Assembly (NCBI GenBank): GCA_036004865.1
Contig: DASYQZ010000097.1
Span: 4,606-68,605 of the forward strand
Source: Vicinamibacterales bacterium
GTDB taxonomy: Bacteria; Acidobacteriota; Vicinamibacteria; Vicinamibacterales; CAVVIG01
Direction of reading: 5' to 3'
DNA: 64,000 nt
Within the stretch, counting starts at the first letter, position 1, and each line of letters starts with the position of its first letter. The translations under genes and the position numbers were made by a program. Shown piece by piece: positions 1,857 through 63,222 of this stretch. The notes under the pieces are model-generated. The model was given only the letters and a program-made list of their open reading frames with translations. It ran no database searches and had not been told where the DNA came from.

Positions 1857-2705
1857 GTGCACGGCAAAAACTGGGTTTCGTGGTGTCGTGTTTTCGTGGT
1901 TGCATTTGGTTTGAGCAGCAGCGGGGCGTGTGCTCATCACTACACGACCACTGGCCTGGTCCTGAAAGTCGATCCCCCCGCCTCGACGGTCACCATTTCC
2001 CACGACGCCTTCCCCGGATTCATGCACGCGATGGTCATGCCCTTCGACGTGAAGGGCGGCGCGCGTCACGAGAAGCTGACCGCCGGCGACCGCGTCCGCT
2101 TCCGGCTGTCGGTGAAGGGAACGCGATCGTGGGTCGATCGCGTCGAGGTGATTTCCGCTGCGCCGGTCGACGCCGGGCTGCAGCAGACGCCCGCGATTCC
2201 GGTGCTCGTGCCGGTGGGATCGCCACTGCCCGATTTCGAGCTGACGGATCAGGCGAACCGCCGGATCGCGCTCTCCGCGCTGAAAGGCAAAGTCGTCGCC
2301 ATCACGTTCATCTACACGCGCTGCCCGCTCCCCGACTACTGCCCGCGCATGGTCGCCAATTTCCGCCAGATCCGCGATCGATTTGCCGCGCGCATGGACA
2401 CCGACCTCGTGCTGCTGACCATCAGCTTCGATCCGAAGTTCGACACGCCCGACACGCTCGCGAGCTATGCGAGGTCGGAGCGCGCCGGCGGGCCCGGCTG
2501 GCATTTTCTGACCGGCGACGCCGCGAATGTCGAGCGCGTCTGCAACGCCTTCGGGATTCAGTACTGGCCGGAAGAAGGGATGATCACGCACTCGCTGCAG
2601 ACGGCCGTCATCGATCGCGACGGCCGGCTGGCAGCGACGGTAGAAGGGAAAGAGTTCTCGCCGAGGCAGCTCGGGGATCTCGTGGAGGCCGTGCTCGAAA
2701 AATAG
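1857..2705 (+). CDS. SCO1/SenC-family copper chaperone fused to an N-terminal CusF-like copper-binding domain
   Basis: The CusF-like segment is GLVLKVD..VTISHDAFPGFMHAMVMPFDV..LTAGDRVRF. The SCO thioredoxin-fold segment is KVVAITFIYTRCPLPDYCPRM ... ITHSLQTAVIDRDG. Start is uncertain: GTG 1857 or TTG 1911. Codons 8-17 are encoded by a dispersed repeat. Confidence 0.78.
   Translation: MHGKNWVSWCRVFVVAFGLSSSGACAHHYTTTGLVLKVDPPASTVTISHDAFPGFMHAMVMPFDVKGGARHEKLTAGDRVRFRLSVKGTRSWVDRVEVISAAPVDAGLQQTPAIPVLVPVGSPLPDFELTDQANRRIALSALKGKVVAITFIYTRCPLPDYCPRMVANFRQIRDRFAARMDTDLVLLTISFDPKFDTPDTLASYARSERAGGPGWHFLTGDAANVERVCNAFGIQYWPEEGMITHSLQTAVIDRDGRLAATVEGKEFSPRQLGDLVEAVLEK
1876..1906 (+). repeat. dispersed octamer repeat family F3, copy 1: (TTTCGTGN)3-GTTGCATT
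   Basis: tttcgtggtgtcgtgttttcgtggttgcatt; matches the copies at 15724-15754 and 18081-18103. Confidence 0.85.
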
Positions 2706-2723: not shown

Positions 2724-4595
2724 TCACTGTCCGGCCGTTGACGTTCTCAGCCGCTGCACCTGCGGCAAATCGGCATCCGCGTTCGCCCACGCTTTCGCGG
2801 CGCGAGTGCGCGCGTCGCGCGCGTCCGCCGCTTTGCCGAGACCGTCGAGCGCCGCGCTGAGACCGAAGTAGGCGCGGCCGCTGCCCGGCTCGCGGCCGAG
2901 TGTTTCGCGATACGCCGCCTCCGCCGTCGCGAAGTCGCCGAGCGCGAGCGCCACGTTCGCCAGCCCTTCCGCGACCGGACGCGGATAGGACGGCGGCTCG
3001 GTGTACAGCATCGCCGCTTCGCGATCGGCGGCCTTCCGGAACAGCTCGTAACCTTTCTTCCGATCGCCGCCGCGTGCCGCGATTGCCGCTTCGAGCTCCT
3101 GCGCGCCGATGCTGATCGGTTCCTTCGTCGACGTCGCACCCTCGAGATCCTTCTGCATGTCGGCGAGCGTCGACGTCGCTTTCTCCATCTGACCGGTCGC
3201 GGCGTACGCCAGGCCGATCGCCCAGTGGCGCCACGCGTTCTGCTCCGGCTTGTCATACGTGGGAATCGTCCTGCCGTCGAGGATGTCGTTCCACTTCTCG
3301 AAGCGGACGAGCGTCTTGATCAGACCGAAGTAGCCCTGCCGCCAGGGTCCGGTCTGCGCGTTGCCGCCGCGCTCCCGCGGGTTCTCCTTGAACGTGAGCA
3401 GATGCTGCGCGCGCGTCATCGAGTCCTGATACCGCCCGCCGAGATTCAGCGAGTGAATCAGGAAGTGAACGTTGTGGCCGTGATGCCCGGTCGGATACAG
3501 CGTGTCGGCGTTGATCCAGGTCAGCTCGTTGTCGGCCGCGGCGGTGAACGACGCGATCGCTTCCTGAATCTTGTCGCTCTGCGCGTAGATGTGACCCGGC
3601 ATGTGCAGCGCGTGCGGGATGTTTGGAACGAGCTGGGCATACCGCTCGCACGCGCGCCACGCGGTGTCCGGCATCTTGCTGCCTTCGTACGCGTGAATCA
3701 GATAGTGGTGCGCGCCGAAATGCGCATCGTCTTTCTTGACCACGTCTTCGAGCAGCGCGATCGCTTCCATCGTGTGCGCGCGCGGATCTTTGCTGACCGA
3801 CTCGAACCCGTTGTCGAGCGCGAGGCCGAGCATCGACTTCGCGTCGAGGTCGTCCGGATACGCTGCGACGAGCTTGCGCAGCCCCGCGATGTACGCGGCG
3901 TCCGCATCTTCTCTGCTTCCAGGGTTGCCGGCCGCGCGCCGAGCCGCCTGTGCTTCGATGTACAGCCGCTCGCGATCGGTGACCTTGTCGCGCAGCGCCA
4001 TCGCCTTGGCGATCGCTTCGCGCGCGCGAATCTGCGGGTTGACCGCCGCGCCGTTCGTCGTTCGCACCACGGCGTCGCCCGAGGCCTCGGGCGCCGCGCC
4101 CGTTCCGCGGCCGGCGCCGGCGTTCGCCGCGTTGCGCATCAACTGGAACGCGGGGCGATAGTCGCCCGCCGCGCTGAGGGCGATGCACCAGTGCGCCATC
4201 GCCATGTCCGGATCGAGCTGCGCCGCCTGCGCGCACGAGCGCTCCGACTCCATGAACCAGAACGAATGAATTTGTGAAAGGCCCTGCAGGAAAAACTCCC
4301 GCGCCTCTTCGGATTTCGTCGTGACCGCGAAACGGGTCGACGTGCCCATCCCGGGCAGGAGCTTCGCCGGCAGCAGCGGCTGCGAGCCGGCGGGCACGAC
4401 GCACATGTCGGGTTCGCGGCGCGCCTGCGTCTGCTTGCCCGCCGCGATCACGTCCGACGACAACGTGGCAGACAAGAGAAGCGCCGCGACGCTGAAGCGG
4501 ATAGCCGTCGGTAACCAACGCCGCGAGCCGAAGGCGAGCGGTGGAAGGCGCTGGCGGCGGGGCCCCAGCGCAAAGTAAATGATGCTGCGTGTCAT
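2724..4595 (-). CDS. secreted tetratricopeptide-repeat protein
   Basis: 623-aa ORF with an N-terminal hydrophobic signal (SVAALLLSATLSS). TPR-like A/L/Y-rich helical repeats occur through the C-terminal half (..AEAAYRETLGREPGSGRAYFGLSAAL..). Confidence 0.6.
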   Translation of the reverse strand: MTRSIIYFALGPRRQRLPPLAFGSRRWLPTAIRFSVAALLLSATLSSDVIAAGKQTQARREPDMCVVPAGSQPLLPAKLLPGMGTSTRFAVTTKSEEAREFFLQGLSQIHSFWFMESERSCAQAAQLDPDMAMAHWCIALSAAGDYRPAFQLMRNAANAGAGRGTGAAPEASGDAVVRTTNGAAVNPQIRAREAIAKAMALRDKVTDRERLYIEAQAARRAAGNPGSREDADAAYIAGLRKLVAAYPDDLDAKSMLGLALDNGFESVSKDPRAHTMEAIALLEDVVKKDDAHFGAHHYLIHAYEGSKMPDTAWRACERYAQLVPNIPHALHMPGHIYAQSDKIQEAIASFTAAADNELTWINADTLYPTGHHGHNVHFLIHSLNLGGRYQDSMTRAQHLLTFKENPRERGGNAQTGPWRQGYFGLIKTLVRFEKWNDILDGRTIPTYDKPEQNAWRHWAIGLAYAATGQMEKATSTLADMQKDLEGATSTKEPISIGAQELEAAIAARGGDRKKGYELFRKAADREAAMLYTEPPSYPRPVAEGLANVALALGDFATAEAAYRETLGREPGSGRAYFGLSAALDGLGKAADARDARTRAAKAWANADADLPQVQRLRTSTAGQ

Positions 4596-4613: not shown

Positions 4614-4660
4614 AAAAAAAGGGCCGGAAGCTCAAGTGCTTTCACCTGAGCCGCCGGCCC
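4614..4660 (-). terminator. rho-independent terminator downstream of the lipoprotein gene
   Basis: On the minus strand, GGGCCGG (4660-4654) pairs with CCGGCCC (4627-4621) and is followed by T7 (4620-4614). A second 8-bp hairpin, GGCGGCCC/GGGCCGCC, lies at 4673-4693. Confidence 0.7.
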
Positions 4661-4709
4661 TCGCTGTTGTCAGGCGGCCCGTTGAGGGCCGCCATCATTG
4701 AGCGTTTGC

Positions 4710-5774
4710 TTACTCAATCCACGCGAAGGATCCGCGATCCCAGCGTCCACCGCCGCGGCTCCACGGAATCATGACGATGCGGGTGCGCTCGTGGACCGGC
4801 GCGTTGTTGTCCGCACGCGTCGAGCCGGCCGTGACCATGAAGCCGACCATCTCGCCGTCCTGCGGCTGGTAACCGTTGAACGGAGCCCAGTAGTTGTTGT
4901 AGAACCACCCGTTCGCGATTTCCATCGGGCTGCCGAGTCCCTTGTCGGTCTGGCAGGGACGCAGCCGCTCGCCGCCGGTGCCGTACCACTGACCGTTAAT
5001 CTTCTCGAAGATCCAGATCGTCGCTTCCTGCAGCGCCCCGCCCATGTCGACGCCGGGCCACCCGCAGCGCTTCGTGTGATCGATGTGGAAGTAGCCGCCG
5101 GTCATCGACAGATCGGTGATCTCCGAGGTCACCGCCCAGCCCCGCACGTCGGGGCTGCCGCCGACGATTCGCACGTTGTTCAGATTGAATCCGCCTGGAG
5201 CGGACGGCGGCGCGGGAGCCGGAGCGGGCTCCGGTTCCGGTTCAGGAGCCGGCGGCGGCGGCGGCGCCTGCGGCTGAGGCCGGCGCAGCGTCTCGTTGCC
5301 GCGAACCGGTCCGAGGCAGGTCGTGCCCGTGTACGACAGCGGCAGCGTGTAGCCGTTGTCTTCGACGGTGCCGTTCGCGGTCAGCTCGAAGTGGCAGCTC
5401 GGAGTGTTCGGAAGTCCGGTCGCATTGCCGCTGACGTTGATCGTCACGGCGTTGCCGTTGAGCGAACCGGTGCCGGAGGCGGACAGTTGCACACCACCGC
5501 CGCAGGTCGCCGTGAACGAGCCGGCGATCGCGGTCGCCGTCTGATTGGTCACCTGGAACTGGAAGTTGGTGCACGTGCCGGGGTCGGGCACGCTCGTCGG
5601 CGCGGCGCCGTTGCCCGACGACCACACACCCGTCATCGTCGGGGCGCTGGGCGTTGTCGATGTGTTCGTGGTCGGCGCGGTCGGCGCGATCACGCTGGTG
5701 GAATGTTCAAACCCGCACGCCGCCGTCAGCGCCGCCGCCACGAGTACGGCCGAGATGCTGGATACCTTGGTCAT
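4710..5774 (-). CDS. lipoprotein of unknown function (two domains joined by a Pro-rich linker)
   Basis: Signal peptide plus lipobox MTKVSSISAVLVAAALTAAC. Linker PQPQAPPPPPAPEPEPEPAPAPAPP. I do not recognise the Trp/Gly-rich C-terminal domain. Confidence 0.6.
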   Translation of the reverse strand: MTKVSSISAVLVAAALTAACGFEHSTSVIAPTAPTTNTSTTPSAPTMTGVWSSGNGAAPTSVPDPGTCTNFQFQVTNQTATAIAGSFTATCGGGVQLSASGTGSLNGNAVTINVSGNATGLPNTPSCHFELTANGTVEDNGYTLPLSYTGTTCLGPVRGNETLRRPQPQAPPPPPAPEPEPEPAPAPAPPSAPGGFNLNNVRIVGGSPDVRGWAVTSEITDLSMTGGYFHIDHTKRCGWPGVDMGGALQEATIWIFEKINGQWYGTGGERLRPCQTDKGLGSPMEIANGWFYNNYWAPFNGYQPQDGEMVGFMVTAGSTRADNNAPVHERTRIVMIPWSRGGGRWDRGSFAWIE

Positions 5775-5953: not shown

Positions 5954-6499
5954 TCAATTGTGAACGGGATGACGAAAACCGTTCAGGTAATCGCGGAGAC
6001 CTTCCTGCGTGCTGCGGAATGCCAGATCGTCCCAGGGAATCGCGTCGCGGCTGAACACAGCCGTTTCCAGACACTCCTCGTCGATGCAGAGCTCGCCGCC
6101 GATGGGCGTCGCGGCATAGACGACGATGATCGGCGCGCGACCGGCGTAGGAGTAGATGTTGACGAGCGCGTCGAGCCGCACGTCGAGCCCGCATTCTTCG
6201 CGCGCCTCGCGTACCGCGGCGGCGGTCAGCGCCTCGCCGCGATCGACGTAGCCGCCGGGAAACACCCACTTGCCGTAGCCGGGATCGATCGCGCGTCGGA
6301 CGAGCACGAGGCCGCCGGCGTCCGTTTCGATGATCGTCCCCACGGCGATCTTCGGGTCCAGATAGAACACGAATCCGCACGCGGTGCAGACCGGACGCGC
6401 CGGTTCGCCGGCTTTCAGAACGCGCCGCTCGAGCGTCCCGCCGCACCGCGGACAGAACCGGTACGCATGCGAGTCGTCGTGGTGATGGAGATCATTCAT
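5954..6499 (-). CDS. NUDIX hydrolase with an N-terminal zinc ribbon
   Basis: Nudix box GGYVDRGEALTAAAVREAREECGL. Zinc ribbon CPRCGG..CTACG. The start is trimmed to ATG 6499 (MNDLHHH) because the upstream ORF extension runs through a heptamer array. Confidence 0.85.
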   Translation of the reverse strand: MNDLHHHDDSHAYRFCPRCGGTLERRVLKAGEPARPVCTACGFVFYLDPKIAVGTIIETDAGGLVLVRRAIDPGYGKWVFPGGYVDRGEALTAAAVREAREECGLDVRLDALVNIYSYAGRAPIIVVYAATPIGGELCIDEECLETAVFSRDAIPWDDLAFRSTQEGLRDYLNGFRHPVHN

Positions 6500-6501
6500 G
6501 A

Positions 6502-6657
6502 GATTGCAGATTGCAAATTGCAGAATGCAGATTGATTGCAGATTGCTGATTGGATTGTGCGGCTGTGCCGGACAGTCCGCAATTCGAAAATGCAATCTGC
6601 AAATCCCAATCTGCAATCAATCTGCAATCTGCAATTTGAAATCTGCAATGTACAATT
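6502..6657. repeat. palindromic tandem-heptamer array: (GATTGCA)n, a spacer, then (TGCAATC)n
   Basis: Left arm 6502-6557, right arm 6591-6657. The outer roughly 46 nt of the arms are reverse complements with 3 mismatches. The central spacer is itself a small hairpin. Confidence 0.9.
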
Positions 6658-6664
6658 CACGCTT

Positions 6665-7195
6665 ATGTCTATTCTGAAAGTCGCGCGCATGGGGCATCCG
6701 GTGCTGCGCGCGAAAGCGCGGGCGCTCGACAAGGGCGAGATCGGGAGCGCCGCGATTCAGAGGCTCATCGACGACATGATCGAGACGATGATCGAGTATC
6801 ACGGCGTCGGCCTCGCCGCGCCGCAGGTGCACGAGGCGGTGCGTCTCTTCGTCGCCGCGCTCGACGCGCCCCCCGAGGAAGGCGGCAAGGAGCCCGAACC
6901 GGTCGTGATCATCAATCCTGAGATTGTGCCCGTCGGCAGCGACACCGTCGAGGACTGGGAGGGGTGCCTGAGCATCCCGGAGATCCGCGGCCGCGTCCCG
7001 CGTGCGCGCGAGATCCGCGTGCGCGCCTTCGACCGGAAAGGCGATCGCGTCGAGCTGCGCGCGCACGATTTTCCGGCGCGCGTCATTCAGCACGAAACCG
7101 ATCATCTCGACGGCGTGCTGTTCCTCGATCGGATGCGATCGTTCGAGACGCTGGCCTTCCTCGACGAGTATTCGCGGTACTGGACTAAAGACTGA
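6665..7195 (+). CDS. def: peptide deformylase
   Basis: Motifs GVGLAAPQV, EGCLSIP and QHETDHLDG. Start trimmed to ATG 6665 (MSILKVARMGHPVL). Confidence 0.92.
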   Translation: MSILKVARMGHPVLRAKARALDKGEIGSAAIQRLIDDMIETMIEYHGVGLAAPQVHEAVRLFVAALDAPPEEGGKEPEPVVIINPEIVPVGSDTVEDWEGCLSIPEIRGRVPRAREIRVRAFDRKGDRVELRAHDFPARVIQHETDHLDGVLFLDRMRSFETLAFLDEYSRYWTKD

Positions 7196-8828
7196 GCCGC
7201 TTTTTCTCGAGCTGACGTTCGGACTGAAGCCGTTCGAGCTCGACTTCGGAGTGATCCGCGAACTGCATCGCCGCGGCGATGGCGCGGTGGCCGGCGTCGT
7301 CTGCGATGGCGCGGTGCATCAACTGGCAGATGCGCCGGTACGAGGGGTGCCCCTGGGGCCCGGTGCGCAGCTCGATGAGGTGCATCGCTTCGCGCGCGTT
7401 CATGTCCATGTAGAACCGCACGCGGTAGGCCATGACGACGGCGTACGGCGCGACGTCGCGCAGTTCGTGCGCGCGGAGCTGTTCGTAGAGCTCCGCGGAT
7501 CGATCCGTCACGCGCCGCCAATCGGCCAGCGCGCCGGCTTCCTCGATCGCCGCCGGCTCGGTGTAGCCGTGGCGCGTGCTGAGCGGCTGCCAGTCGAGCG
7601 TCAGCAGGCGATGGCGCTGCAGATCGCGGAAGGCGCCGTAGTCGGCGAGCACGTCGAAGCGATAGCTGGTGCGCTCGAACGCGCGGCCCGGCTTGTGGCG
7701 GCGGTTCCCGCGGCGCCCGACGTACGCCCGCAGCAGAGCGACGCGATCGTCGGCCGAGAGGCGGCGCGCCGCTTCCAACAACTGATCGTCCGGCAACGCC
7801 GACACCGGGTAGAGCGCGGCGGCCACGACCTTGAGCTCGCCGTCGGGATCGAAACCGGTCAGTGTGACCTCGTCGCGCGGGTCAGGCGCGAGGTCCTCGA
7901 CGAACGGATGCGCCACGGCGGCGAAATTGCGACGCGTCTCGGCGAGGTAGTCAATCCACCGGCCGCCGCGGTCCGGCTGATCGATCCGGGCGAGGAACGC
8001 AGGAATCACCTGACGGAGCTCGGTCAGGATCTGTTGGGCGCAGTCGCGCGCTTCCAGCAGCGGATGCGCGAACATCCGCAGCAGCAGCGCCTCGAACGCC
8101 TGACCGGTGCCGAAGAGGCCGACGTTCGATTGCGTCGCCGCCGGCAGCAGTCCGCGCAGCGTGTCGAGCGCTTTGGCGCGAATCACCGATTTGTAGACGG
8201 CGTCCGAATCAGCGGGCGACTTCGGATACTTCGCGCGGAAGTGCGATTCCATCGCCGGGATCCAGCGCGCATAGGTGTCGAACGCCTCGTCGAGCGTGCG
8301 GACGAACGCCTCGCGAAGGGGCGATCGAATGAGCTCGGCGGGGACGTGATATTTCCAGCGGCCGTCAGGCCGGTCGGTGTACGGCACGTAGCGCGTGGAC
8401 TGCTCGAGATACGCCATCAGGCGGCCCCATTCGAGCACTTTCGTCAGCACGTTCGAGACGCCTTCGCACGCGACGTGCGCGCCGCCGAGCTGCGCGACCG
8501 AGTCGTCTCCGTATTCGCTCAGGACGCGCGCGTAGAGTTTGTCGGCGCGCGCGGTGCCGACCGTGCTGGTGTGAGGCGAGGGGCCCGCGTTCGTCAACGC
8601 GGCTCCGTGCGCGAGATCTCCGACGAATTCGTCGAGGAAGAGGCGGCGGACCGATTTCGCGGATCGCGAGTAGCGCGCGAACAGCGCGCCCTTCACCGTC
8701 TCCGGCAAATTGGTCAGCGCGAAGACCGGGCGGTCCGTGTTGGTGAAGTACGGCGCGAGCGCGCGTGTCTCGTCCGGCGTGAACGTTTCGGCGGCCACAG
8801 TGGCCGCGTATTGTACCGCGGTCCACAC
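7185..8828 (-). CDS. double-length ThyX-like (FAD-dependent thymidylate synthase family) protein
   Basis: 547 aa. Contains N-terminal ALFARYSRS and C-terminal FRDLQRHRLLT segments that resemble ThyX motifs. The assignment is by motif recall only. Confidence 0.55.
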   Translation of the reverse strand: MWTAVQYAATVAAETFTPDETRALAPYFTNTDRPVFALTNLPETVKGALFARYSRSAKSVRRLFLDEFVGDLAHGAALTNAGPSPHTSTVGTARADKLYARVLSEYGDDSVAQLGGAHVACEGVSNVLTKVLEWGRLMAYLEQSTRYVPYTDRPDGRWKYHVPAELIRSPLREAFVRTLDEAFDTYARWIPAMESHFRAKYPKSPADSDAVYKSVIRAKALDTLRGLLPAATQSNVGLFGTGQAFEALLLRMFAHPLLEARDCAQQILTELRQVIPAFLARIDQPDRGGRWIDYLAETRRNFAAVAHPFVEDLAPDPRDEVTLTGFDPDGELKVVAAALYPVSALPDDQLLEAARRLSADDRVALLRAYVGRRGNRRHKPGRAFERTSYRFDVLADYGAFRDLQRHRLLTLDWQPLSTRHGYTEPAAIEEAGALADWRRVTDRSAELYEQLRAHELRDVAPYAVVMAYRVRFYMDMNAREAMHLIELRTGPQGHPSYRRICQLMHRAIADDAGHRAIAAAMQFADHSEVELERLQSERQLEKKRLSL

Positions 8829-8836: not shown

Positions 8837-9556
8837 TTACATGTCAGAGTGAAGTCTGAGTTCACTCCGACCTCGCTCCGACTTCATTCCGACTCGTGTC
8901 GGAGTGAACTCTGACTTGAGTACGACTACGCCTAGCCGCTCGTGCCGCGACTCGTCCTCAACCGGGTTCGGCTTCAGTGTCGTCCAGCAGTTGCGAACGC
9001 TGTCCAGGTCCGCATCCGGGAGGGGATCAGCGCAAATCGCACGATGCGCCGCGCGGCGCTCTTCGTCGGTTGCGCCGAGTCCCAGATAAAGCTCGTGCGG
9101 GACGAGCCACTCGATCACCGCGCCAAGTCCATGCGCGCGGTAACTTGACCAATAATGCGCGTCCGGCGTCGCAACCATGCCCGCTCGCACGGGGTTCTGT
9201 TCGACGTACCTCAAACAAATGAGCCACTGCCGCTCATCCAGGAGGTGTTTCGCGCGATATCGACCCTCCCAGATGGTGCCCGTCCGACCGTACTTGCGAT
9301 TGAAATAACGGGTGTATCGCTCACCCAGCTGCTTCATCGCGCCGGCCATGGCCGTCTCGCTGTTGGGCGTCGCGATCAGATGGTAGTGCGTCGTCATCAC
9401 GACGAACGCGTGGACGGACGCGCCGTGGCATTCAGCTGCGGCTGCGAGGATCCTCAAGAAGACGTCACAATCTGCGTCTTGCGTGAAGATACCCATCCGG
9501 TTGTTCCCGCGGTTGTAGACGTGTGCGCTCACCTTCGGAAGATAGATTCGTCGCAT
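8837..9556 (-). CDS. REP-associated tyrosine transposase (RAYT; IS200/Y1 HUH family)
   Basis: HUH motif in VVMTTHYHLIATP. Catalytic Tyr region GTIWEGRYRAKHLLDE, plus YVEQNPVRAGM. The last roughly 25 codons are read out of the flanking inverted repeat, so the true C-terminus is uncertain. Confidence 0.8.
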   Translation of the reverse strand: MRRIYLPKVSAHVYNRGNNRMGIFTQDADCDVFLRILAAAAECHGASVHAFVVMTTHYHLIATPNSETAMAGAMKQLGERYTRYFNRKYGRTGTIWEGRYRAKHLLDERQWLICLRYVEQNPVRAGMVATPDAHYWSSYRAHGLGAVIEWLVPHELYLGLGATDEERRAAHRAICADPLPDADLDSVRNCWTTLKPNPVEDESRHERLGVVVLKSEFTPTRVGMKSERGRSELRLHSDM

Positions 9557-9767
9557 GTGAACCCCCGGCGATCAGTCTCAGCAATATCTGGTCTCAGCGA
9601 GATGCCAACGAAACTCGCGTGCTCGGTCGAACACGAGGCAGTTTCTGCCAACGCGACTTAACCGATCCGACGTGCCCGTAAGTCGTACTGAAGTCAGAGT
9701 TGAGTCAGAGTGAACTCCGACTCGAGTCGGACTTGAGTCGGAGTGATGTCGGAGTGAAGTCGGACTC
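8845..9767 (-). mobile_element. RAYT gene bracketed by roughly 90-bp imperfect terminal inverted repeats built from REP-like hairpins
   Basis: The reverse complement of 8845-8930 aligns with 9677-9767 (cgta(a)gtcgtact[c/g]aagtcagagtt..cactccgac..gagtcgg..). The arms contain palindromes such as CCGACTCGAGTCGG and begin with CGTAG / CGTAAG. Confidence 0.75.
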
Positions 9768-9780
9768 GTTACAATTGGGC

Positions 9781-13610: not shown

Positions 13611-14394
13611 GTGTGTGGCCGCGAGAGAGCAAGAGCCGTCGGCGTGATACTCCTCACAGTCCTGTTGTCTGTACCGCGAGCACCAAGCGGCGCCGACAAC
13701 GCGCGCCAGATCGTCGAAGAAGCGCAGAAGCGCACTGGCGCGAAGTCGCATCGCTACGAAGGGCTGCTGCAGGTGTTCGACTCGAAGGGCAACATCGGCG
13801 ACAAGCGCTGGACGTTCGAGCGGCTCGGCGCGCACGGCAACAGCAAGGCGGTCCTGCGATTCACCGCTCCCGCCGAGGTCAAGGGCGTCGCGCTGCTCGT
13901 CGTCAACCACCCGGATCGCGCGTCCGATCAATGGATGTGGACGCCGGCGCTCGAGCGCGATCGCCGGATCGCGCTGCAGGATCGCTCGACGCGGTTCTTC
14001 GGCACCGACTTCAGCTTCGAGGATCTCGAGGAGCGCGATGTCAACCAGTACGACTACACCCTCGCCGGGCGAGGAGCCGGTTGACGGCGCTGCATGCTGG
14101 AAGATCCAGTCGACGCCGAAAGAGTCCAAGTCGTCGCAGTACACGCGATCGATTGTCTGGATTCGCAAGGACACGTACTCCTTCCTGCGGATCGACAACT
14201 ACATCAATGATCAGACGGTGCGCCGGCTGACGTACCGCGACTACCAGAACGTGCAGGGCATCTGGACGGCGCGGCAGCTGGAGATGGCCGATCTTCGACG
14301 CGGCAGCCGCACGCGCCTGACGCTCGACAAGCTCGCCTACAACGTTCCGCTCAAGGACGAAGACTTCACGCTGCAGGCCATCCGCAGGCAATGA
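13611..14394 (+). pseudogene. LolA-like outer-membrane lipoprotein-sorting protein, split by a +1 frameshift at the G-run 14067-14069
   Basis: The first frame reads ..FEDLEERDVNQYDYTLAG then RGAG-stop. The second frame continues EEPVDGAACWKIQSTPKE..RIDNYINDQ... Removing one G from CCGGGC restores ..DYTLAGEEPVDG... The putative start is GTG 13611, just after repeat F1. Confidence 0.6.
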
Positions 14395-15707
14395 CGCGTG
14401 CGGCGGCCGTATGTGCGCTCGTGCTGTGGACGGCGCGCGCCAGCGCCCAGAGCGTCACGCAGCGCGGGTTTCTCGAGGGCACCGCGTTTGTCTATGCACA
14501 GGCTGCCCCCAACGACGACGTCCGCTTCGTCTCTGAGGTCCTGGCGCGAGAGGAAGTCTTCTTCAAGCCAGCGCCGTGGATTCAATTTGCCGGCGGCCTC
14601 GACTTCCGCGCGAGCTCGCACGATCACGTGGAGGACTCCTGGCGGCTCGATTTCAGCGATCGCACCCTGAAGCGTCCGCGGCTGTCGATCCGTCGTCTCG
14701 CGGCGACCGTGACTCGCGGCCGGTTCACGCTCGACATGGGGAAGCAGGTCATCCGCTGGGGCAAGACCGACATCGTGACGCCGACGGACCGCTTCGCGCC
14801 ACGCGACTTTCTGAACGTCGTCGACAACGAGCTCCTCGCCGTGACCGGCGCGCGCGGGGTCATTCAGGCGGATCAGGAGACGTTCGAGGTCGTGTGGCTT
14901 CCGCGGTTCACACCGAGCCGTGTGCCGCTCGTCGATCAACGATGGGCGCCACTTCCGCCGCTCGCGCGCGGCATCCCCATTGTCGACGCGAATGCGCCGC
15001 TGCCCGATGGATTGCAGACAGGACTGCGCTGGGGCCACGTCGGCAGCGCCATCGAATATTCACTGTCGTTCTTCGACGGCTTCAACCATTTGCCGAACAT
15101 GGACGCACTCACGACAATCAACGCAGAACCCGCAGAGCCTGCTTGCTCTGTGTGTTCTGCGGGTTCTGCGAATTCCGCCTCGATCGTCGTCCGCCGCATC
15201 TATCCGTCGATTCGCACCTACGGCGTCGACGCGGCCGTGCCGACGCGCTGGTTCACGATCAAGGGTGAGGCGGCGTACTTCACGAGCTCCTCCGTCGACA
15301 CAGACTTGTCCCTCCGAAGCGCCGAAGGCGCGAAGGGGGACGAGGACGTGCTGTACGTGCTGCAGCTCGAACGTCAAACAGGAGAATGGGTGCTGGTCGG
15401 CGGATACGCAGGCGAGGCGGTGACGGCGCGGCGCGCGGCGCTTACGTTCGCGCCGGACCGGGGGATGACACGTTCGATCGTCGCGCGTGCGTCGTACACG
15501 ATCGATCCGAACCGGAGCGTCGCGTTCGAAAGCGCCGTGCGGCAGAACGGCAACGGCGTGTATGCGAAGGCCGAGTACTCGCAGGCGCGCGGGCAACACT
15601 GGCGCGCGACGGTCACCGGCATCGTCATCGCCGGGAGCGAGGACGATTTTCTCGGGCAGTACCATCGCAATTCTCATGCGACAGTCGCGCTTCGCTATAG
15701 TTTCTAG
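14391..15707 (+). CDS. outer-membrane beta-barrel protein (unknown family)
   Basis: Signal peptide MTRAAAVCALVLWTARASAQS. Alternating beta-strand pattern and a C-terminal ..VALRYSF. ATGA overlap with the LolA-like stop. Confidence 0.6.
   Translation: MTRAAAVCALVLWTARASAQSVTQRGFLEGTAFVYAQAAPNDDVRFVSEVLAREEVFFKPAPWIQFAGGLDFRASSHDHVEDSWRLDFSDRTLKRPRLSIRRLAATVTRGRFTLDMGKQVIRWGKTDIVTPTDRFAPRDFLNVVDNELLAVTGARGVIQADQETFEVVWLPRFTPSRVPLVDQRWAPLPPLARGIPIVDANAPLPDGLQTGLRWGHVGSAIEYSLSFFDGFNHLPNMDALTTINAEPAEPACSVCSAGSANSASIVVRRIYPSIRTYGVDAAVPTRWFTIKGEAAYFTSSSVDTDLSLRSAEGAKGDEDVLYVLQLERQTGEWVLVGGYAGEAVTARRAALTFAPDRGMTRSIVARASYTIDPNRSVAFESAVRQNGNGVYAKAEYSQARGQHWRATVTGIVIAGSEDDFLGQYHRNSHATVALRYSF
15122..15170. 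repeat. intragenic palindromic octamer element: (CGCAGAAC)2, a 19-nt spacer, then (GTTCTGCG)2
   Basis: Perfect 15-bp inverted repeat, 15122-15136 against 15156-15170, lying in frame inside the barrel gene (encodes ..NAEPAEPACSVCSAGSANS..). Confidence 0.85.
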
Positions 15708-15723: not shown

Positions 15724-15754
15724 TTTTCGCGCTTTCGTGTTTTCGTGGTTGCAT
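15724..15754 (+). repeat. family F3, copy 2
   Basis: tttcgcgctttcgtgttttcgtggttgcatt, lying between the barrel gene stop and the MBL hydrolase start. Confidence 0.85.
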
Positions 15755-15780
15755 TTGAGTTGGCTGACCGCCGAGCTGCC

Positions 15781-16605: not shown

Positions 16606-16638
16606 TTCTCGCTGGTGCGGGCACCGTTTGAGGCCACC

Positions 16639-18018
16639 ATGGACAACGTCATCGACTTCATCAACGTCAACCGCGATCGCTATCTCGACGAGCTCAAGGC
16701 GCTGCTGGCCATCCCGAGCATCAGCGCGCTGCCGCAGCATGCCGCCGACGTGAAGCGCTGCGCCGAGTGGTGCGCCGACGAGATGCGGCGCATCGGCCTG
16801 CAGAACGTCCGGCTCATCGACACGCCGGGCAATCCGGTCGTCTACGGCGACTGGCTGGGCGCCGAGGGCGCGCCGACGATTCTCTTCTACGGCCACTACG
16901 ACGTGCAGCCGGTCGACCCGCTCAATCTGTGGGAGTCGCCGCCGTTCGAGGCGACGATTCGCGACGGCGAGATCTACGCACGCGGATCGGCCGACGACAA
17001 GGGACAGGTCTTCATGCACTTCAAGGCGATCGAAGCGCATCTGAAGCAGAACGGCCGGCTGCCAGTGAACATCAAGATCATCCTGGAAGGCGAGGAGGAA
17101 GTCGGCAGCGAGCATCTCGACGATTTCATCCGCGCGCACAAGAGCGAGCTCGGCGCCAACGTCGTCGTCATCTCGGACTCGGCGATGTTCGACCGCGGCG
17201 TGCCGTCGATCTGCTACGGCCTTCGCGGTCTCGTGTACTTCCAGATCGATCTGCGCGGCAGCAAAACCGATCTCCACTCGGGATCGTTTGGCGGCGCCGT
17301 CGCGAACCCGGCGCTGGTGCTCGCGCAGGTGCTGTCGCAGATGAAGGATCGCGGCGGCCGCGTCAAGATTCCCGGTTTCTACGACGATGTGGTGCCGCTG
17401 ACTGACGAAGAACGCAAGGCATGGGCCTCGCTGCCGTTCAACGAGAAGAAGTACAAGAAGGACTTCGGCATCCCGAAGCTGTTCGGCGAGAGCGGCTACA
17501 CCACGCTCGAGCGCACCTGGGCACGGCCGACGTTCGAGATCAACGGGCTCCTCTCCGGCTTCACCGGCGAGGGCGCGAAGACGGTGCTGCCCGCCGTCTC
17601 GATGGCGAAGGTCAGCATGCGGCTCGTGCCGAACCAGAACCCGGACACCATCGCGAAATTGTTCGAAGACTACGTGAAGAAGATCACGCCGAAGACGGTG
17701 GAGCTGAAAGTCACGCGCATGCACGGCGGCAAGCCGTGGATGACGTCGTACGACAATCCGTTCGTGCAGGCCGCCGGCCGCGCCATTGAGAAAGGGTTCG
17801 GCAAGAGGCCGGTCTTCACGCGCGAGGGCGGATCGATTCCCGTGGTCTCGACGTTTCAGGAGGAGCTCGGCCTGCCGTCGGTGCTGTTCGGCGTCGGCCT
17901 GCCCGACGAGAACGCGCACGCGCCGAACGAGAAGCTCGACGTCTCGAACTTCCACAACGGCATCATCGCGTCCGCCATCCTGTACCAGGAGATTGCGTCG
18001 ATCGCGGTGCCTGCATAG
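16639..18018 (+). CDS. M20-family dipeptidase
   Basis: FYGHYDVQP, RGSADDKGQ, EGEEEVGS and HAPNE motifs. ATG 16639 is preferred over GTG 16615. Confidence 0.85.
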   Translation: MDNVIDFINVNRDRYLDELKALLAIPSISALPQHAADVKRCAEWCADEMRRIGLQNVRLIDTPGNPVVYGDWLGAEGAPTILFYGHYDVQPVDPLNLWESPPFEATIRDGEIYARGSADDKGQVFMHFKAIEAHLKQNGRLPVNIKIILEGEEEVGSEHLDDFIRAHKSELGANVVVISDSAMFDRGVPSICYGLRGLVYFQIDLRGSKTDLHSGSFGGAVANPALVLAQVLSQMKDRGGRVKIPGFYDDVVPLTDEERKAWASLPFNEKKYKKDFGIPKLFGESGYTTLERTWARPTFEINGLLSGFTGEGAKTVLPAVSMAKVSMRLVPNQNPDTIAKLFEDYVKKITPKTVELKVTRMHGGKPWMTSYDNPFVQAAGRAIEKGFGKRPVFTREGGSIPVVSTFQEELGLPSVLFGVGLPDENAHAPNEKLDVSNFHNGIIASAILYQEIASIAVPA

Positions 18019-18038: not shown

Positions 18039-18103
18039 GCAACCACGACAACACGAAACCACGAAAAAGACCAATCGTGCTTTCGTGTTTTCGTGGTTGC
18101 ATT
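18039..18103. repeat. family F3, inverted pair (hairpin)
   Basis: gcaaccacgacaacacgaaa (18039-18058) is the reverse complement of tttcgtgttttcgtggttgc (18081-18100) at 19 of 20 positions. Confidence 0.85.
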
Positions 18104-33764: not shown

Positions 33765-34774
33765 CGTTCGGAGAACTCGAAGAGGCCCGGCGTCACGAGG
33801 ATGCGATCGTTCTTGCCGAAGAACAGGCTGTTCGGCGTCAGGAGGCCGGCCGCGCGAAATTGCACGGTGCGGATCTTGTCGCCGTCGGCGTCGTACACGT
33901 ACGTGAACGGCGCGACGAACGAGATCCACAAATGGCCGTGCCGATCGACCGCGGCGGTGCGAATGGTCGGCTGCACGAGCGGCAGCTCGCCCTCGTCCGT
34001 CTTGCGCTTCGGCCACGTCGTCGGCAGCCTGCTCAGCACCTCGTCGACTTCGCGGCCCTGCACGTGGCGCTCGAAGACGAGCCGCCCCTCTCGATCGAAC
34101 TTCTGAAACATCGGCTCGCCGGTTTGAAACACGAAGAAGAATCCGCCGGACGGATCGACGAGGGGAATGCCGCTGTTCAGCGCAAGGTGCACCTCGCGGT
34201 CGTCTTCGTGGCGTGTGCGGCGGAGATTGCCGATGGTCCGGTTTGGAATCCCGCTCAGCGTGTACTCCGTGATGAGCCCGCCGGTGTCGGGCTGCGACAT
34301 CAGGATCGACCGGCCGGTGTACTGCAGCGATCCGATGCCGTTCAGCACGAAGTTCTCGAGCACGACGCGCGGCCGCATGCGTCCGGGCAGCAGAAAGCCG
34401 CCGATGCGAAACCCGGCGGGCGTGAAGATTTGAATCCGCTCGCGGCCGTTCGGAGCGTCCGCGACGACGAACGTGCCGTTCGGCTCGACCGCGAACGCGG
34501 TCGGATCGATGATGCGGCCCGACTCGGCGCCGATCTGGATGATCTCCCACGAGCTCGCCTGCTGCTCGTCGATGCCGTACACGGTGTGGCCGCGCCGGTC
34601 GAAGATGAAGTACTGACCTGACGACGACTGCTGGAATCCGGTCGGCTCGCGAAAGCGTCCGGCGACGTGCGCGGGGATGGCGCCGGCGGAGCGCAGCACG
34701 TCCGGCTTCAGCGCGGTGAGCGAGGGGACAACAAGAAAGCCACCGCAGAGAGCGCAGAGAACGCGGAGAATCAT
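33761..34774 (-). CDS. secreted beta-propeller-like protein (unknown family)
   Basis: Signal MILRVLCALCGGFLVVPSL. Repeated ..G.F.FD..G...V.D.. strand patterns. No catalytic motif recognised. Confidence 0.5.
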   Translation of the reverse strand: MILRVLCALCGGFLVVPSLTALKPDVLRSAGAIPAHVAGRFREPTGFQQSSSGQYFIFDRRGHTVYGIDEQQASSWEIIQIGAESGRIIDPTAFAVEPNGTFVVADAPNGRERIQIFTPAGFRIGGFLLPGRMRPRVVLENFVLNGIGSLQYTGRSILMSQPDTGGLITEYTLSGIPNRTIGNLRRTRHEDDREVHLALNSGIPLVDPSGGFFFVFQTGEPMFQKFDREGRLVFERHVQGREVDEVLSRLPTTWPKRKTDEGELPLVQPTIRTAAVDRHGHLWISFVAPFTYVYDADGDKIRTVQFRAAGLLTPNSLFFGKNDRILVTPGLFEFSER

Positions 34775-34805
34775 TGTGGCGCTGCGATCTCTGCGTGCTC
34801 GGCGG

Positions 34806-40287: not shown

Positions 40288-40674
40288 TCACACCTCCTCG
40301 GGTTTCGCACGGAGCGCGGTGCCGATCGCGGCCACGAGCCGCTCCCACCATTCGGTTTCTTCACGGAGACGCTTCCGTCCGGCAGCGGTCAGCCGGTAGT
40401 ATTTGGCTCGACGGTTGTTGTCGGACGTGCCCCATTCGGTCGCGACGAGGCGCTGGCGCTGGAGGCGATACAACGCAGGATAGAGGGCGCCCTGCTCGAT
40501 CGCGAGCGCGTCGCCGGTGATCTGCTCGATTCTGAGGAGGATGCCGTAGCCGTGCAGCGGCCCGAGAGAGATCGCCTTCAGGATGAGCAGGTCGAGCGTG
40601 CCCGGCAGCAGTTCCGCGGCGTTGTCCACAGGGTCCACAGGGTCCACAGGGTCCACCGTGTCCCTCGGGGCCAT
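40288..40674 (-). CDS. PadR-family transcriptional regulator
   Basis: LDLLILKAISLGPLHGYGILLRIEQ..GALYPALYRLQRQRLV...RRAKYYRLTAAGRKRL. Confidence 0.9.
   Translation of the reverse strand: MAPRDTVDPVDPVDPVDNAAELLPGTLDLLILKAISLGPLHGYGILLRIEQITGDALAIEQGALYPALYRLQRQRLVATEWGTSDNNRRAKYYRLTAAGRKRLREETEWWERLVAAIGTALRAKPEEV
40624..40668. repeat. in-frame 9-bp tandem repeat in PadR codons 5-19
   Basis: gtccacagg x3, then gtccaccgt and gtccctcgg. Encodes (DPV)3 on the minus strand. Confidence 0.9.
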
Positions 40675-52853: not shown

Positions 52854-53912
52854 TCAGCCTTCGCCGTTCGCGGACTCCATCAATCGTTGCACCACGCCAT
52901 CCCAGGTGATCGACCGGGCGCGATCGTACCCCGCGTCGCCGAGGCTTCGAGCGCGCGCGCGGTCGGCCGCGAGTCGCGAGATGCCGGCTCCAAACGATTC
53001 GGGCGTCGGCTCGGCAACCAGGCCGTTCACGCCGTCTTCGACGAACTCCAGCGGACCGCCGGCGTCGCCGGTGGTGACGACCGGTTTGCGCGCGAGAAAC
53101 GCCTCGAGCGTCACATAGCCGTAGTCCTCGTCGAACGGCGGAAAGACGACCCCGAGCGCGCCGGCGTACAACCGTACCAGGTGCTCGGCGTCGACGCGGC
53201 CGGCGAACGTGACGCGATCGGCGACGCCTGCGGTCACCGCCGTTTCGGCGAGCTGTTCACGCAGCGGACCCTCGCCGACGACGAGGAGCCGGACGGCGCG
53301 ATCGGCATGCGCGAGCGCGCGAATGATCAGATCGACGCGTTTGTTCGCTTCGAGCCGGCCGACCGACAACACGTAGTCGCCGTACGGACCGGCGCGCAGC
53401 GCGCCGGCAAGCGGCGGCGGGTGATAGAGCGGTTCGGCCGTGATGCCGTTGTAGCGTTCGAGCCGCGCCGCGATGGTGCGCGCGATGGTGAAGAGCCGCG
53501 CCGACTCCGTCAGCATCTCCCGATCGAGCGCGATGAGCGTATCGCGGAGCCGCACGTCCGCTTCCTCGTGCGTGAACTCGCTGTACGGCGTGCCGCACAA
53601 ATCGTAAATCGGGCGGTGCTGGTGGCAGAGCCAGGTCACTTTGTTTGGATGGCGCACGAAGTACGTCGGGAATTTCGTCGCGATGACGGTGTCGATGCGC
53701 GTGCCGTTGGTCTCGGAGAGATCGACGAGCCGCCAGGCCGCCGCCTGCGCGAGCAGCTCCGCTTTCGGATACCACTTGAACGGAATCGACACGCGCTCGG
53801 CGCGGTACCCGTGGCGCCGGAGCTCGTCGACGAGGCTGCGCACGAGCAGTTCGGCGCCGCCGTGCACGAACGGCACCTGAGCCTCGCACACGAGAACGCT
53901 ACGACTCGGCAT
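52854..53912 (-). CDS. family 4 (GT-B) glycosyltransferase
   Basis: ..VGRLE.NKR.DL...A......L.VVGEGP.. and ..EDYGYV.LEAF...KPVV....GGP.EFV.DG.NG. Confidence 0.85.
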   Translation of the reverse strand: MPSRSVLVCEAQVPFVHGGAELLVRSLVDELRRHGYRAERVSIPFKWYPKAELLAQAAAWRLVDLSETNGTRIDTVIATKFPTYFVRHPNKVTWLCHQHRPIYDLCGTPYSEFTHEEADVRLRDTLIALDREMLTESARLFTIARTIAARLERYNGITAEPLYHPPPLAGALRAGPYGDYVLSVGRLEANKRVDLIIRALAHADRAVRLLVVGEGPLREQLAETAVTAGVADRVTFAGRVDAEHLVRLYAGALGVVFPPFDEDYGYVTLEAFLARKPVVTTGDAGGPLEFVEDGVNGLVAEPTPESFGAGISRLAADRARARSLGDAGYDRARSITWDGVVQRLMESANGEG

Positions 53913-54056
53913 CTGGTAATCGGGTAATCGGGTAATCGGGTAATCGGATTGTGCGATTGCACCACATCGTCGTTGTCGAGGCCATCACGGATTCATCGCG
54001 GCCCAATCCAGCAATCAATTACCCGATTACCAGATTACCCAATTACCAGATTCACC
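53913..54056. repeat. palindromic tandem-octamer array: (GGGTAATC)4, a roughly 70-nt spacer, then (GATTACCM)4
   Basis: The left arm (53913-53949) and right arm (54017-54056) are reverse complements at 31 of 34 aligned positions. The inner edge of the left arm is GGATTGTGCG, identical to 6552-6561. Confidence 0.9.
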
Positions 54057-54059
54057 TGC

Positions 54060-55169
54060 TCACGTGGCGAAACGGAAATTGATGATGTCGCCGTCCAGCA
54101 CGACGTAGTCCTTGCCCTCGAGCCGGACCTCGCCGTGATCGCGGCACGCGGCCATCGTGCCGCGCGCGATCAGGTGGTCGTAGCTGACGACTTCGGCGCG
54201 GATGAAGCCCCGCTGGATGTCGCTGTGAATCTCGCCTGCCGCGAGTTGCGCGGCCGTTCCGCGCGGAATCGACCACGCGCGGCATTCGTCTTCGCCGACG
54301 GTGAAGAACGAAATGTAGCCGAGCAGATCGTAGCTCGCGCGGATGACGCGATCGAGACCCGACTCGGCGAGGCCGAGATCCGTGAGAAACGCCGCGGCGT
54401 CGGCCGGGTCCAGTTGCGCGATCTCGAGCTCGATTTTCGCGCACACGGCGGCCGCCGCGGTCCCGGCGCGAGTGAGGAACGGCGTCAGGCCCGCCGCGTC
54501 CGCCGCGCGATCGATGCGCGTCGCCGCTTCGCCGCCGGCGGACAGATCGGCTTCGTCGAGATTGATCACGATCAACAGCGGCTTGGCGGAGAGGAACTGG
54601 AATCCGCGCAGCCGCTTCAAGTCTTCACCTTTCAGATCGAGCGAGCGCAGCGGTCGTCCTTCTTCGAGCGCCGCCTTGCACGTCATCAGCACGTCGCGCT
54701 CGCGCTCCAGATCCGCCGACCGGTTTTTCTTGAGATCTTTTTCGAGGCGTTCGAGGCGCCGCTCGGCGACGCCGAGGTCCGCGAGGATCAGCTCGTCCTC
54801 CATGGCCTGCGCATCACGCGCGGGGTCGATGGATCCCGATGGATGCGCGACCGCGGGATCGCGGAACGCGCGCAGCACGTGGACCAGAGCGTCCGCATTC
54901 TTGTAGGCGACGACGTCGACCAGCGCTTTGGCGCCGCCGCCGGCTCCCGTCGCCGCGAGATCGGTGAACTCGACCGTCGCCGGCACGCGCTTCCGCGGGT
55001 TGTACATCGCCGTCAGCCGGTCGAGCCGCGCGTCGGGCACCTTCGAGATGCCGACCGACGTCTCTCCCTTGCCGTGCGCGGCGCGCGCCGTCTCCCGCGC
55101 ACTGGTCATGAGCTGAAAGAGGGTGGTTTTTCCGCTGGATGCGAATCCGATGAGAGCGGCCCGCAGCAT
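54060..55169 (-). CDS. ychF: redox-regulated ATPase YchF
   Basis: GFASSGKTTLF P-loop. ..VEFTDLAG/A.., ..VHVLRAF.., and C-terminal TGS-like ..GKDYVV.DGDIINFRF. Confidence 0.92.
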   Translation of the reverse strand: MLRAALIGFASSGKTTLFQLMTSARETARAAHGKGETSVGISKVPDARLDRLTAMYNPRKRVPATVEFTDLAATGAGGGAKALVDVVAYKNADALVHVLRAFRDPAVAHPSGSIDPARDAQAMEDELILADLGVAERRLERLEKDLKKNRSADLERERDVLMTCKAALEEGRPLRSLDLKGEDLKRLRGFQFLSAKPLLIVINLDEADLSAGGEAATRIDRAADAAGLTPFLTRAGTAAAAVCAKIELEIAQLDPADAAAFLTDLGLAESGLDRVIRASYDLLGYISFFTVGEDECRAWSIPRGTAAQLAAGEIHSDIQRGFIRAEVVSYDHLIARGTMAACRDHGEVRLEGKDYVVLDGDIINFRFAT

Positions 55170-55309
55170 GAGTCGAGCCCCGGATGGTACCACCGACCCT
55201 GACAACCGCAATTGTCAGAGGGTCTGACCAGTCAGACTCGTGACAATTCGCGAGGGCGAGGAAACGGCCGAAAATTAGGCGCAACTTACTGACGGGGTGG
55301 ATTTTGCGG

Positions 55310-63221: not shown

Positions 63222-63222
63222 A

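Follow-up and report, generated by a model that had tools for sequence, protein, structure and literature searches.

We analyzed a 64,000-nucleotide (nt) stretch of DNA from a Vicinamibacterales bacterium, referred to here as the window, in which the start codons of two divergent genes, one encoding a NUDIX hydrolase and the other (def) encoding peptide deformylase, are separated by a 165-nt spacer (6500-6664) filled with tandem heptamers arranged as a palindrome. The relatives of the neighboring ThyX gene were Acidobacteriota metagenome-assembled genomes (MAGs), mostly labelled Vicinamibacterales or gp6. The locus is laid out as follows, with repeat copies counted by Tandem Repeats Finder (TRF).

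5954-6499, minus strand: NUDIX hydrolase gene, matching PF00293 and Zn_ribbon_Nudix, with an N-terminus that aligns across relatives
6497-6499, minus strand: NUDIX start codon, 2 nt from the left arm of the array
6502-6557, plus strand: left arm, about 8 GATTGCA-like heptamers (TRF: 6501-6552, unit AGATTGC, period 7, 7.9 copies)
6558-6590: central spacer of 33 nt, a GC-rich mini-hairpin (tgcgg ctgt gccgg acag t ccgca) that also appears in predicted folds
6591-6650, plus strand: right arm, reverse-complementary to the left and composed of about 9 TGCAATC-like heptamers (TRF: 6591-6649, 8.9 copies)
6651-6656, plus strand: putative -10 box of def, TACAAT, 8 nt before the def ATG, at the hexamer position conserved in relatives
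6665-6667, plus strand: def start codon ATG, from the open reading frame (ORF) and family matches
6665-7195, plus strand: def, matching NF001159 with 171.8 bits

A heptamer palindrome between the NUDIX and def genes

The original prediction described the spacer as a palindrome of about 8 GATTGCA units, a 33-nt hairpin center and about 9 TGCAATC units, and this description held, as did the two start codons that it gave as the gene boundaries. It also took the outer 46 nt or so of the arms to be true reverse complements with 3 mismatches. We measured a best inverted repeat of 43 nt at 95% complementarity (6503-6545 against 6607-6649), close to that figure, or 58 nt at 72% when extended. The arms are separated by 38-61 nt, and the left-arm units are regular on the outside and increasingly degenerate towards the center. 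Two irregularities, namely a GCAAATTGCA variant and a partial unit of 4 nt (GATTGATTGCA), appear in both arms, and when the order of the units was permuted just 1 of 200 permutations matched the observed arm-to-arm score. Because the irregularities are mirrored and so few permutations score as well, the two arms are copies of each other, beyond a mere common motif. The permutation test is decisive only for long arrays (that of the window and one in a relative, L070) and is underpowered at 3-4 units.

The tract is AT-rich, as had been predicted, with a GC content of 0.42-0.47 against 0.66 for the window as a whole. The left and right arms have a G-C skew of +8 and -8, respectively, the unit contains no G-tract, and the strand that reads outward is the G-poor (TGCAATC)n on both sides. 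The outer ends read GAGATT..., with neither GTAG nor CGTC there. Two ORFs in the ORF list, 5954-6616 and 6536-7195, pass through the repeat arms.

Short reads can mis-assemble repeats, so an assembly artefact, or chance low-complexity sequence, was one explanation to weigh. The array sequence was identical in six independent Joint Genome Institute (JGI) metagenome assemblies, which excludes an artefact of one assembly; homologous arrays occurred in five other genomes from other projects, and the fold z-scores were near -11. We regard the probability of this explanation as negligible.

The predicted RNA fold of the whole spacer had a free energy of -85.8 kcal/mol (z = -10.8) and the predicted DNA fold -58.3 kcal/mol (z = -11.0), and none of 200 shuffled sequences folded as stably. 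The palindrome would fold into a stem of about 60 bp, either as a DNA cruciform, which would have to form in vivo, or as an RNA hairpin. The stability of the predicted RNA hairpin raises the possibility that the spacer is an RNA element, that is, a structured NUDIX 5' untranslated region, a site of RNase III cleavage or other processing, a transcription barrier or a small RNA. The NUDIX promoter of relatives without the array would have to lie in or beyond the 5' end of def, and a transcript from such a position would here span the palindrome; moreover, most arrays of a comparable kind in Xanthomonas are transcribed (Rehm et al. 2015, PLoS One, PMC4692102). Against this, the whole window gave no Rfam match at gathering thresholds, and an Rfam E-value scan of 6400-6760 returned generic hairpin (miRNA precursor) models only, all sub-threshold (best 29.9 bits against a threshold of 100). 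No terminator-like site with a U-tract was found in the spacer on the relevant strands, and both flanking genes start here, so that a terminator role does not apply. A 60-bp stem 2 nt before the AUG would also hinder NUDIX translation rather than help it. On balance an RNA element appears quite improbable.

History of the array among relatives

We compared the window with the corresponding loci of relatives, designated L followed by a number, L001 being the window's own genome. The divergent NUDIX/def pair was kept in about 140 relatives (about 60 genome loci and about 75 metagenome loci), and the spacer between the genes was nearly always 0-60 nt. About 130 of the 140 keep the pair without any array. 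The original prediction named, as evidence that would count against it, relatives that lack the repeat while keeping the same gene spacing; most do lack it, but in these the spacer is 14-30 nt and the spacing is thus not the same.

Homologous GATTGCA palindromes were present at the same position in L087 and L088 (NUDIX 94% identical; spacers of 217 and 210 nt), in L090 (NUDIX 89%; spacer 113 nt) and in L007 (NUDIX 87%; spacer 86 nt). On alignment, the arrays of the window and of these four relatives had their outer ends and inner landmarks (GATTGCTGATTGG and GATTGTGCG) in common and a variable interior. The outer units were the best-conserved part, and the outer 44 nt of the right arm were almost identical in the window, L087, L088 and L090. 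The central GC hairpin was restricted to the window, L087 and L088 and was not found in the homologous arrays of L090 and L007. In the distant L121 (80%) the same site carries a GATTTCA/GATTGCA palindrome that is probably homologous to the window array. Palindromic arrays with other units occupy the NUDIX-def site in L092 (GGAATGC) and in L112 and L114 (GTGCGAC-like).

Three relatives, L089, L091 and L058, nest within the array-bearing clade in a neighbor-joining tree of NUDIX and def, yet have no array. Their spacer is 14 nt, ACTACAATTTTC(G/T)C, and the same spacer occurs in distant lineages. The simplest history suggested by this pattern is a single gain with one or two complete losses afterwards. 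Recombination may instead have replaced the allele, and short markers cannot separate loss from replacement. Filled and empty sites read cat-GA-[array]-TACAATT and cat-AC-TACAATT, respectively, with clean junctions, and the comparison showed no target-site duplication of the kind that would mark a miniature inverted-repeat transposable element (MITE). The array is recent at the NUDIX/def locus.

Direct evidence for how the array changes came from L087 and L088, which are 99.3% identical over 2073 nt and whose arrays differ solely by one clean 7-nt unit. Because the difference is exactly one heptamer, whole-unit slippage does occur in the array. An expansion, (GATTGCC)4-5, is confined to the left arm of L087 and L088 and has no mirror in the right arm, indicating that the arms can grow independently. 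The original prediction had suggested that copy number might vary between strains as at a contingency locus. The one-unit difference between two near-identical strains shows that slippage happens, but the six JGI assemblies are identical, and hypervariability is at most a possibility. Neither ORF includes the array, whose position is 5' of the -10 box.

The relatives also point to the def promoter. A TAnAAT hexamer lies 6-11 nt 5' of the def ATG in 143 of 147 relatives, the short spacers contain a conserved aGTATAATTc motif, and there is no Shine-Dalgarno-like sequence between the hexamer and the ATG. In the window the TACAAT box directly follows the right arm and is in phase with it as the next heptamer (TACAATT). 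This box was recognized from the comparison with relatives and not from a consensus scan, which found no sigma-70 promoter in 6350-6800 and none inside the array. Given how far a -10 box usually lies from the start of transcription, def is probably leaderless or nearly so, apparently across the order. The array lies upstream of this conserved core promoter, and the (UGCAAUC)n leader that had been proposed for both genes finds no support for def at this promoter, because the conserved box lies downstream of the array and the predicted transcript would be leaderless or near-leaderless without the repeat.

Many genomes have no more than 14-20 nt between the NUDIX and def start codons, and the divergent promoters must, from this spacing, overlap in short-spacer genomes. 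In the 14-nt spacer, GAAAAT on the NUDIX strand could be a candidate NUDIX -10 box. In the window a Shine-Dalgarno sequence has no space at the NUDIX start, the left arm being only 2 nt off.

Judging from the sequence comparison, the array is dispensable for both genes and probably not an essential control element: most relatives keep the NUDIX/def pair without it, and it includes neither of the start codons nor the core promoter of def.

Paired inverted arrays across the Vicinamibacterales

The original prediction called for a scan of relatives for the pattern of a tandem k-mer, a spacer and the tandem reverse complement. An initial k-mer hairpin scan was too noisy in GC-rich DNA, and we therefore searched for TRF arrays followed by an array of the reverse-complement unit within 120-250 nt. 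With a period of at least 7 and a gap no longer than 120 nt, this search yielded 44 clean palindromic arrays across 1.22 Mb of Vicinamibacterales sequence; over 1.49 Mb the count was 58. The arrays are intergenic, frequently filling a spacer from codon to codon, and occupy about 9% (about 1 in 11) of the sampled intergenic regions of at least 40 nt, as delimited by crude gene calls. Period 7 is the mode, chiefly among low-GC arrays, with periods 8 and 9 next. Of the 227 arrays that contain three or more copies of a 7- to 9-nt unit, 71 had an inverted partner within 150 nt and 3 a direct partner. The copy numbers of the two arms correlate (Spearman 0.56), and the units fall into about 25 clusters.

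The arms are polarized in a strand-symmetric way. Of 57 arrays, 47 have the G-rich arm on the 5' side and the C-rich one on the 3' side (p = 7.5e-7); counted by unit cluster, the split is 18 versus 6 of 24 (p = 0.023). Co-directional, convergent and divergent contexts numbered 23, 10 and 9 for the arrays and 268, 125 and 117 for intergenic regions overall, and flanks beside gene starts were about as frequent as flanks beside gene ends, with no enrichment at starts. These background-like proportions argue against a dedicated terminator or promoter role.

The original prediction had pointed to the same architecture at four further sites in the window. It was clear at two of these (53911-54052 and 18041-18095); the site at 15122-15170 has about two units per arm and lies inside a coding sequence (CDS), and that at 34744-34800 is weak, with one right unit. 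The arrays and related repeats at these and other sites of the window are given below.

53911-54052: palindromic array, (GGTAATCG)4.6, a 70-nt center and (CGATTACC-like)4.4, identified by TRF and pairing; placed between the stop of gene 54060-55214 (minus strand) and the start of gene 52854-53912 (minus strand)
18041-18095: palindromic array, (AACCACGA)3.2, 8 nt and (TCGTGNTT)2.6, just 3' of the stop of an M20 peptidase gene (16606-18018)
15122-15170: short hairpin, about two nine-mers per arm (GCAGAACCC), within called CDS 14391-15707
1874-1906, plus strand: solo TTTCGTG-family arm ending in TTCGTGGTTGCATT, without an inverted partner
15724-15755, plus strand: second solo TTTCGTG-family arm, without an inverted partner
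4615-4665: intrinsic terminator with a GC stem and T-run, between genes 4710-5774 and 2724-4595

Over about 29 nt, from roughly 15727 on, the second solo arm nearly matches the right arm of the array at 18041 (about 18075-18103). The 14-mer TTCGTGGTTGCATT, which ends a nearly invariant run of TTTCGTG units about 29 nt long, occurs three times in the window (1893-1906, 15742-15755 and 18090-18103), always on the plus strand and in co-directional spacers, and only the third copy has an inverted partner arm. An element with the same flanks as the TTCGTGGTTGCATT elements lies in an unrelated context at L008 13505. CDS 14391-15707 encodes 438 amino acids (aa) with no Pfam match and a C-terminal RYSF as in outer-membrane barrels; the hairpin within it, which encodes AEPAEPACSVCSAGSANS, may be an in-frame intragenic insertion.

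Several observations bear on how fast these arrays come and go. A 176-nt GATTGCA array in L013 lies between two genes that are adjacent in the window, and arrays with different units are found 3' of the M20 peptidase gene in different genomes. In L007, (GGGCTGA)n and (CAGCCCT)n arrays at 9365-9456 are made from the stem halves of a canonical terminator; the same terminator site is plain in the window and in L058, and the stem sequence of L007 differs from that of the window. Compared in this way across genomes, the arrays turn over quickly. The terminator at 4615-4665 indicates that ordinary terminators exist in this genome.

A contrasting picture emerged upstream of thiI, where a GGTAATCG/CGATTACC palindromic array fills the spacer in at least 4 species (L001 1208-1326, just left of the window; L009 15944-16038; L053 16252-16352; L033 15038-15164). 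In L001 the first unit includes the stop codon of the preceding gene, and the last is immediately followed by the ATG of thiI. The arms are about 90% or more identical, whereas 4-fold sites of thiI are only 44-55% identical among L001, L053 and L033; L009, a long-read MAG with frameshifts, was left out of this comparison. The arms are low in complexity, so the comparison would mainly reflect conservation of the unit itself. Members of the GGTAATCG family are also found at non-orthologous sites, namely position 53911 of the window and, in L027, the 3' end of def.

These results bear on the possibility that the array is a cis-regulatory element, with binding sites or promoter and leader modules that coordinate NUDIX and def. 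In variants of this idea the arrays would recruit a regulator that binds the repeat, act as an UP-like element or provide unstructured, G-poor leaders for initiation independent of a Shine-Dalgarno sequence. The arms abut the NUDIX ATG (2 nt) and the def -10 box, both present the same G-poor outward strand, and their outer units are the most conserved. The unit of the thiI array is conserved across species despite saturated synonymous sites. Shine-Dalgarno-like motifs are scarce upstream of starts here (30% against a background of 15%, with crude start calls), and the TAACTGA repeats of Beggiatoaceae, proposed as post-transcriptional signals, stop 1 nt short of start codons that have no Shine-Dalgarno sequence (MacGregor 2015, PMC4679880). 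However, the great majority of relatives have the same gene pair without the array, as do three members of the array-bearing clade, and orthologous sites carry different units. Arrays are not enriched beside gene starts, the consensus scan gave no sigma-70-type promoter within the array, and the conserved def -10 box lies outside it. We therefore consider a cis-regulatory element at this locus unlikely.

Two candidate motifs and two further repeats were set apart from the class. An inner motif, GGATTGTGCG, occurs in the arrays at 6552 and 53946 and also in a gene at 39240; it was rejected as a class signature and judged a by-product of degenerate ATTG-containing units. A flank common to L013 and L007, ATCGAAGCC, is a coincidence, being in L013 the coding 3' end of an MBL-fold gene. 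The perfect (GTCCACAGG)3.7 repeat at 40624-40656, near the 5' end of a minus-strand gene, encodes PVD repeats and, as a coding repeat, falls outside the palindromic class. A solitary (GGGATTx)4 array at 63222-63249 starts 1 nt after the stop of gene 62133-63221; its unit is a G-rich heptamer of the kind that has been described in Xanthomonas and Nostoc as forming quadruplexes.

Farther from the array, the ThyX gene (PF02511, 7185-8828) encodes a protein of 547 aa, as it does in all relatives, whereas ThyX is usually about half as long; its 3' end overlaps that of the convergent def by 11 nt. ARAGORN found no tRNA or transfer-messenger RNA (tmRNA).

A neighboring transposase, known repeat systems and the origin of the array

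A gene for a Y1 transposase adjoins thyX, 2.2 kb from the GATTGCA array, and is itself bordered by arrays.

8837-9556: Y1_Tnp gene (RAYT-like, REP-associated tyrosine transposase), with a PF01797 match and 66.7 bits to NCBIfam REP_Tyr_transpos, for which the curated cut-off is 80
8843-8925: palindromic array of GTCGGAGTGAA-like 11-mers, on the 3' side of the Y1 gene
9680-9770: palindromic array of the GTCGGAGTGAA 11-mer, on the 5' side of the Y1 gene

Y1 homologues at the same position were flanked on both sides by palindromic arrays in 10 of 10 relatives (L009, L010, L012, L016, L018, L031, L039, L053, L056 and L061, around 6900-7900). The flanking unit is 8-11 nt long and differs per genome (GTCGGAGTGAA, GGGTCAGAYC, GGGACGGAGTA, GAACCGGAGTG, GGTCCGACCC and others). 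Elsewhere in the window and in 10 neighboring loci these units gave chance single matches only.

Transposition of IS200/IS605 type leaves clean junctions without target-site duplication. The GATTGCA palindrome might in the same style be a non-autonomous element of the REPIN or MITE kind, a hairpin inserted, and sometimes precisely excised, by a single-strand Y1 transposase. The proximity of the Y1_Tnp gene, the arrays of the same architecture that flank it and its 10 homologues, and the presence/absence polymorphism with clean junctions are all consistent with such an origin. So is the dispersal of unit families within one genome (TTCGTGGTTGCATT three times in the window, the GGTAATCG family twice), and the GATTGCA family itself occurs in several unrelated contexts, often with GAGATT...AATCTC ends. 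The hallmark of a REPIN, however, is that the dispersed repeat is also the flank of the RAYT gene, and here the Y1 flanks are GTCGGAGTGAA arrays, not GATTGCA. The 64-kb window holds a single GATTGCA element, some 25 unit families exist side by side, which makes one sequence-specific enzyme unlikely, and there is no GTAG-type foot. The NCBIfam score falls under the curated cut-off, and the one-unit indels and one-sided expansions indicate slippage. A REPIN-like origin is therefore doubtful, and the common architecture may still reflect a structure-based link between the Y1 gene and the arrays.

Comparison with repetitive extragenic palindromic (REP) elements, bacterial interspersed mosaic elements (BIMEs) and REPINs, which are associated with Y1 transposases of the RAYT or TIRYT type (Bertels & Rainey 2011, PMC3116915; Di Nocera et al. 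2013, PMC3733652; Quentin et al. 2018, PMC6006769), leads to a similar picture. Like these, the arrays are intergenic, hairpin-forming doublets that are imperfect palindromes, several families may be present per genome, and a single Y1 gene has palindromic repeat flanks; Y1 genes of Acidobacteria are known to be flanked by terminal inverted repeats (TIRs), with atypical flanking structures (PMC3733652, PMC6006769). The arms here differ in being 7-nt tandem arrays and not REPs of 20-40 nt, in lacking a GTAG or CGTC foot, and in being unlike the flanks of the transposase gene.

The original prediction knew of no described counterpart in a GC-rich genome; there is one. The closest known system is that of the convergent GGGAATC array pairs of Xanthomonas (X. 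campestris, X. axonopodis). X. campestris has 186 GGGAATC heptamer arrays, about 90% of them intergenic, and in 70 cases two close arrays in convergent orientation form an inverted repeat with stem-loop potential; the arrays differ in length from one related species to another, and no function has been assigned to them (PMC4692102). The likeness extends to a GC-rich host, a 7-nt unit (2-26 copies per array in Xanthomonas), a mostly intergenic position close to ORF ends, convergent opposite-strand pairs of the same polarity as here (G-rich arm 5'), and copy number and presence that vary between relatives. The Xanthomonas arrays differ in having essentially one G-tract unit, read as G-quadruplex-forming, as against about 25 families mostly without G-tracts, and in being under-represented in divergent contexts (7-8%), which are not depleted here (9 of 42). 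The Vicinamibacterales palindromes also often fill the whole spacer from codon to codon, unlike the Xanthomonas arrays. The short tandemly repeated repetitive (STRR) sequences of cyanobacteria and the TAACTGA repeats of Beggiatoaceae share period 7, an intergenic position and an end 1-2 nt before starts without a Shine-Dalgarno sequence. They run in one direction only (a single inverted case among 170 in Beggiatoa; PMC4679880), with one unit per genome and in AT-rich or moderate-GC hosts. In our literature search, the coverage of which was incomplete and is not proof of absence, we found no description of such arrays in Vicinamibacteria.

The best reading is that the array is one instance of a common, labile repeat class and not a special NUDIX/def control region. 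We put the probability that it is a slippage-driven, hairpin-forming repeat with mainly passive consequences at roughly 0.55. It belongs to a lineage-wide class in which two inverted arrays of a 7-9-nt unit surround a short center. In the ancestor of a small clade it would have entered, or have expanded within, the 2 nt that separated the NUDIX start codon from the -10 box of def. A possible local seed is the -10 heptamer itself, with which the right arm is contiguous and in phase, TGCAAT and TACAAT differing at one position. Later change would have proceeded by whole-unit gain and loss through replication slippage, with occasional complete loss. The arms would have been copied by inverted duplication or by template switching across the hairpin, and recent expansions can be one-sided.

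Correction of quasi-palindromes by intrastrand template switching and slipped-strand mispairing at simple sequence repeats are established replication-error mechanisms. They would account for the mirrored irregularities, the whole-unit indels and the precise loss of the palindrome; they are mechanisms and not element families, and only the slippage outcome, the 7-nt indel, was observed here. The passive effect of the array would be to push formerly overlapping divergent promoters about 150 bp apart and to place AT-rich, structure-prone DNA upstream of both, with a specific regulatory role probably absent.

Several points weigh against a slippage-driven origin with passive consequences. A GATTGCA-type array sits at the same site in the distant L121, and GATTGCA-type arrays also occur at non-orthologous sites in L013, L015 and L064. 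The GGTAATCG unit is conserved beyond what neutral in-situ slippage would lead one to expect. Slippage alone offers no explanation for the polarity with the G-rich arm first, and a regulatory function of the array would be compatible with the present sequence evidence. Units conserved at orthologous sites though synonymous sites are saturated, unit families recurring at unrelated sites and strand-symmetric polarity would fit a maintained system as opposed to replication debris, either a new kind of structure-recognized, non-autonomous hairpin element propagated or trimmed by the Y1 transposase or a set of selected cis-acting modules. We hold this to be a tentative alternative, well short of even odds.

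For the NUDIX/def locus itself the outcome is deflationary, the array being recent and dispensable. The class-level features, namely polarity, unit conservation and transposase flanks, are worth follow-up. Vicinamibacterales rank with the most abundant bacteria of soils, and hardly any of them have been cultured. Arrays of this class affect gene calling, since ORFs that enter them inflate N-termini; naive longest-ORF calling would lengthen NUDIX and def each by about 40 repeat-encoded residues. They also affect assembly, the prediction of promoters and terminators, and strain typing, where unit number differs between near-identical strains. The Y1-transposase flanks bear on whether REP-like systems can be built from tandem units. 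Together, the heptamer period and the convergent G-rich polarity, as in Xanthomonas, suggest a general, as yet unexplained mechanism for inverted microsatellite pairs in GC-rich bacteria.

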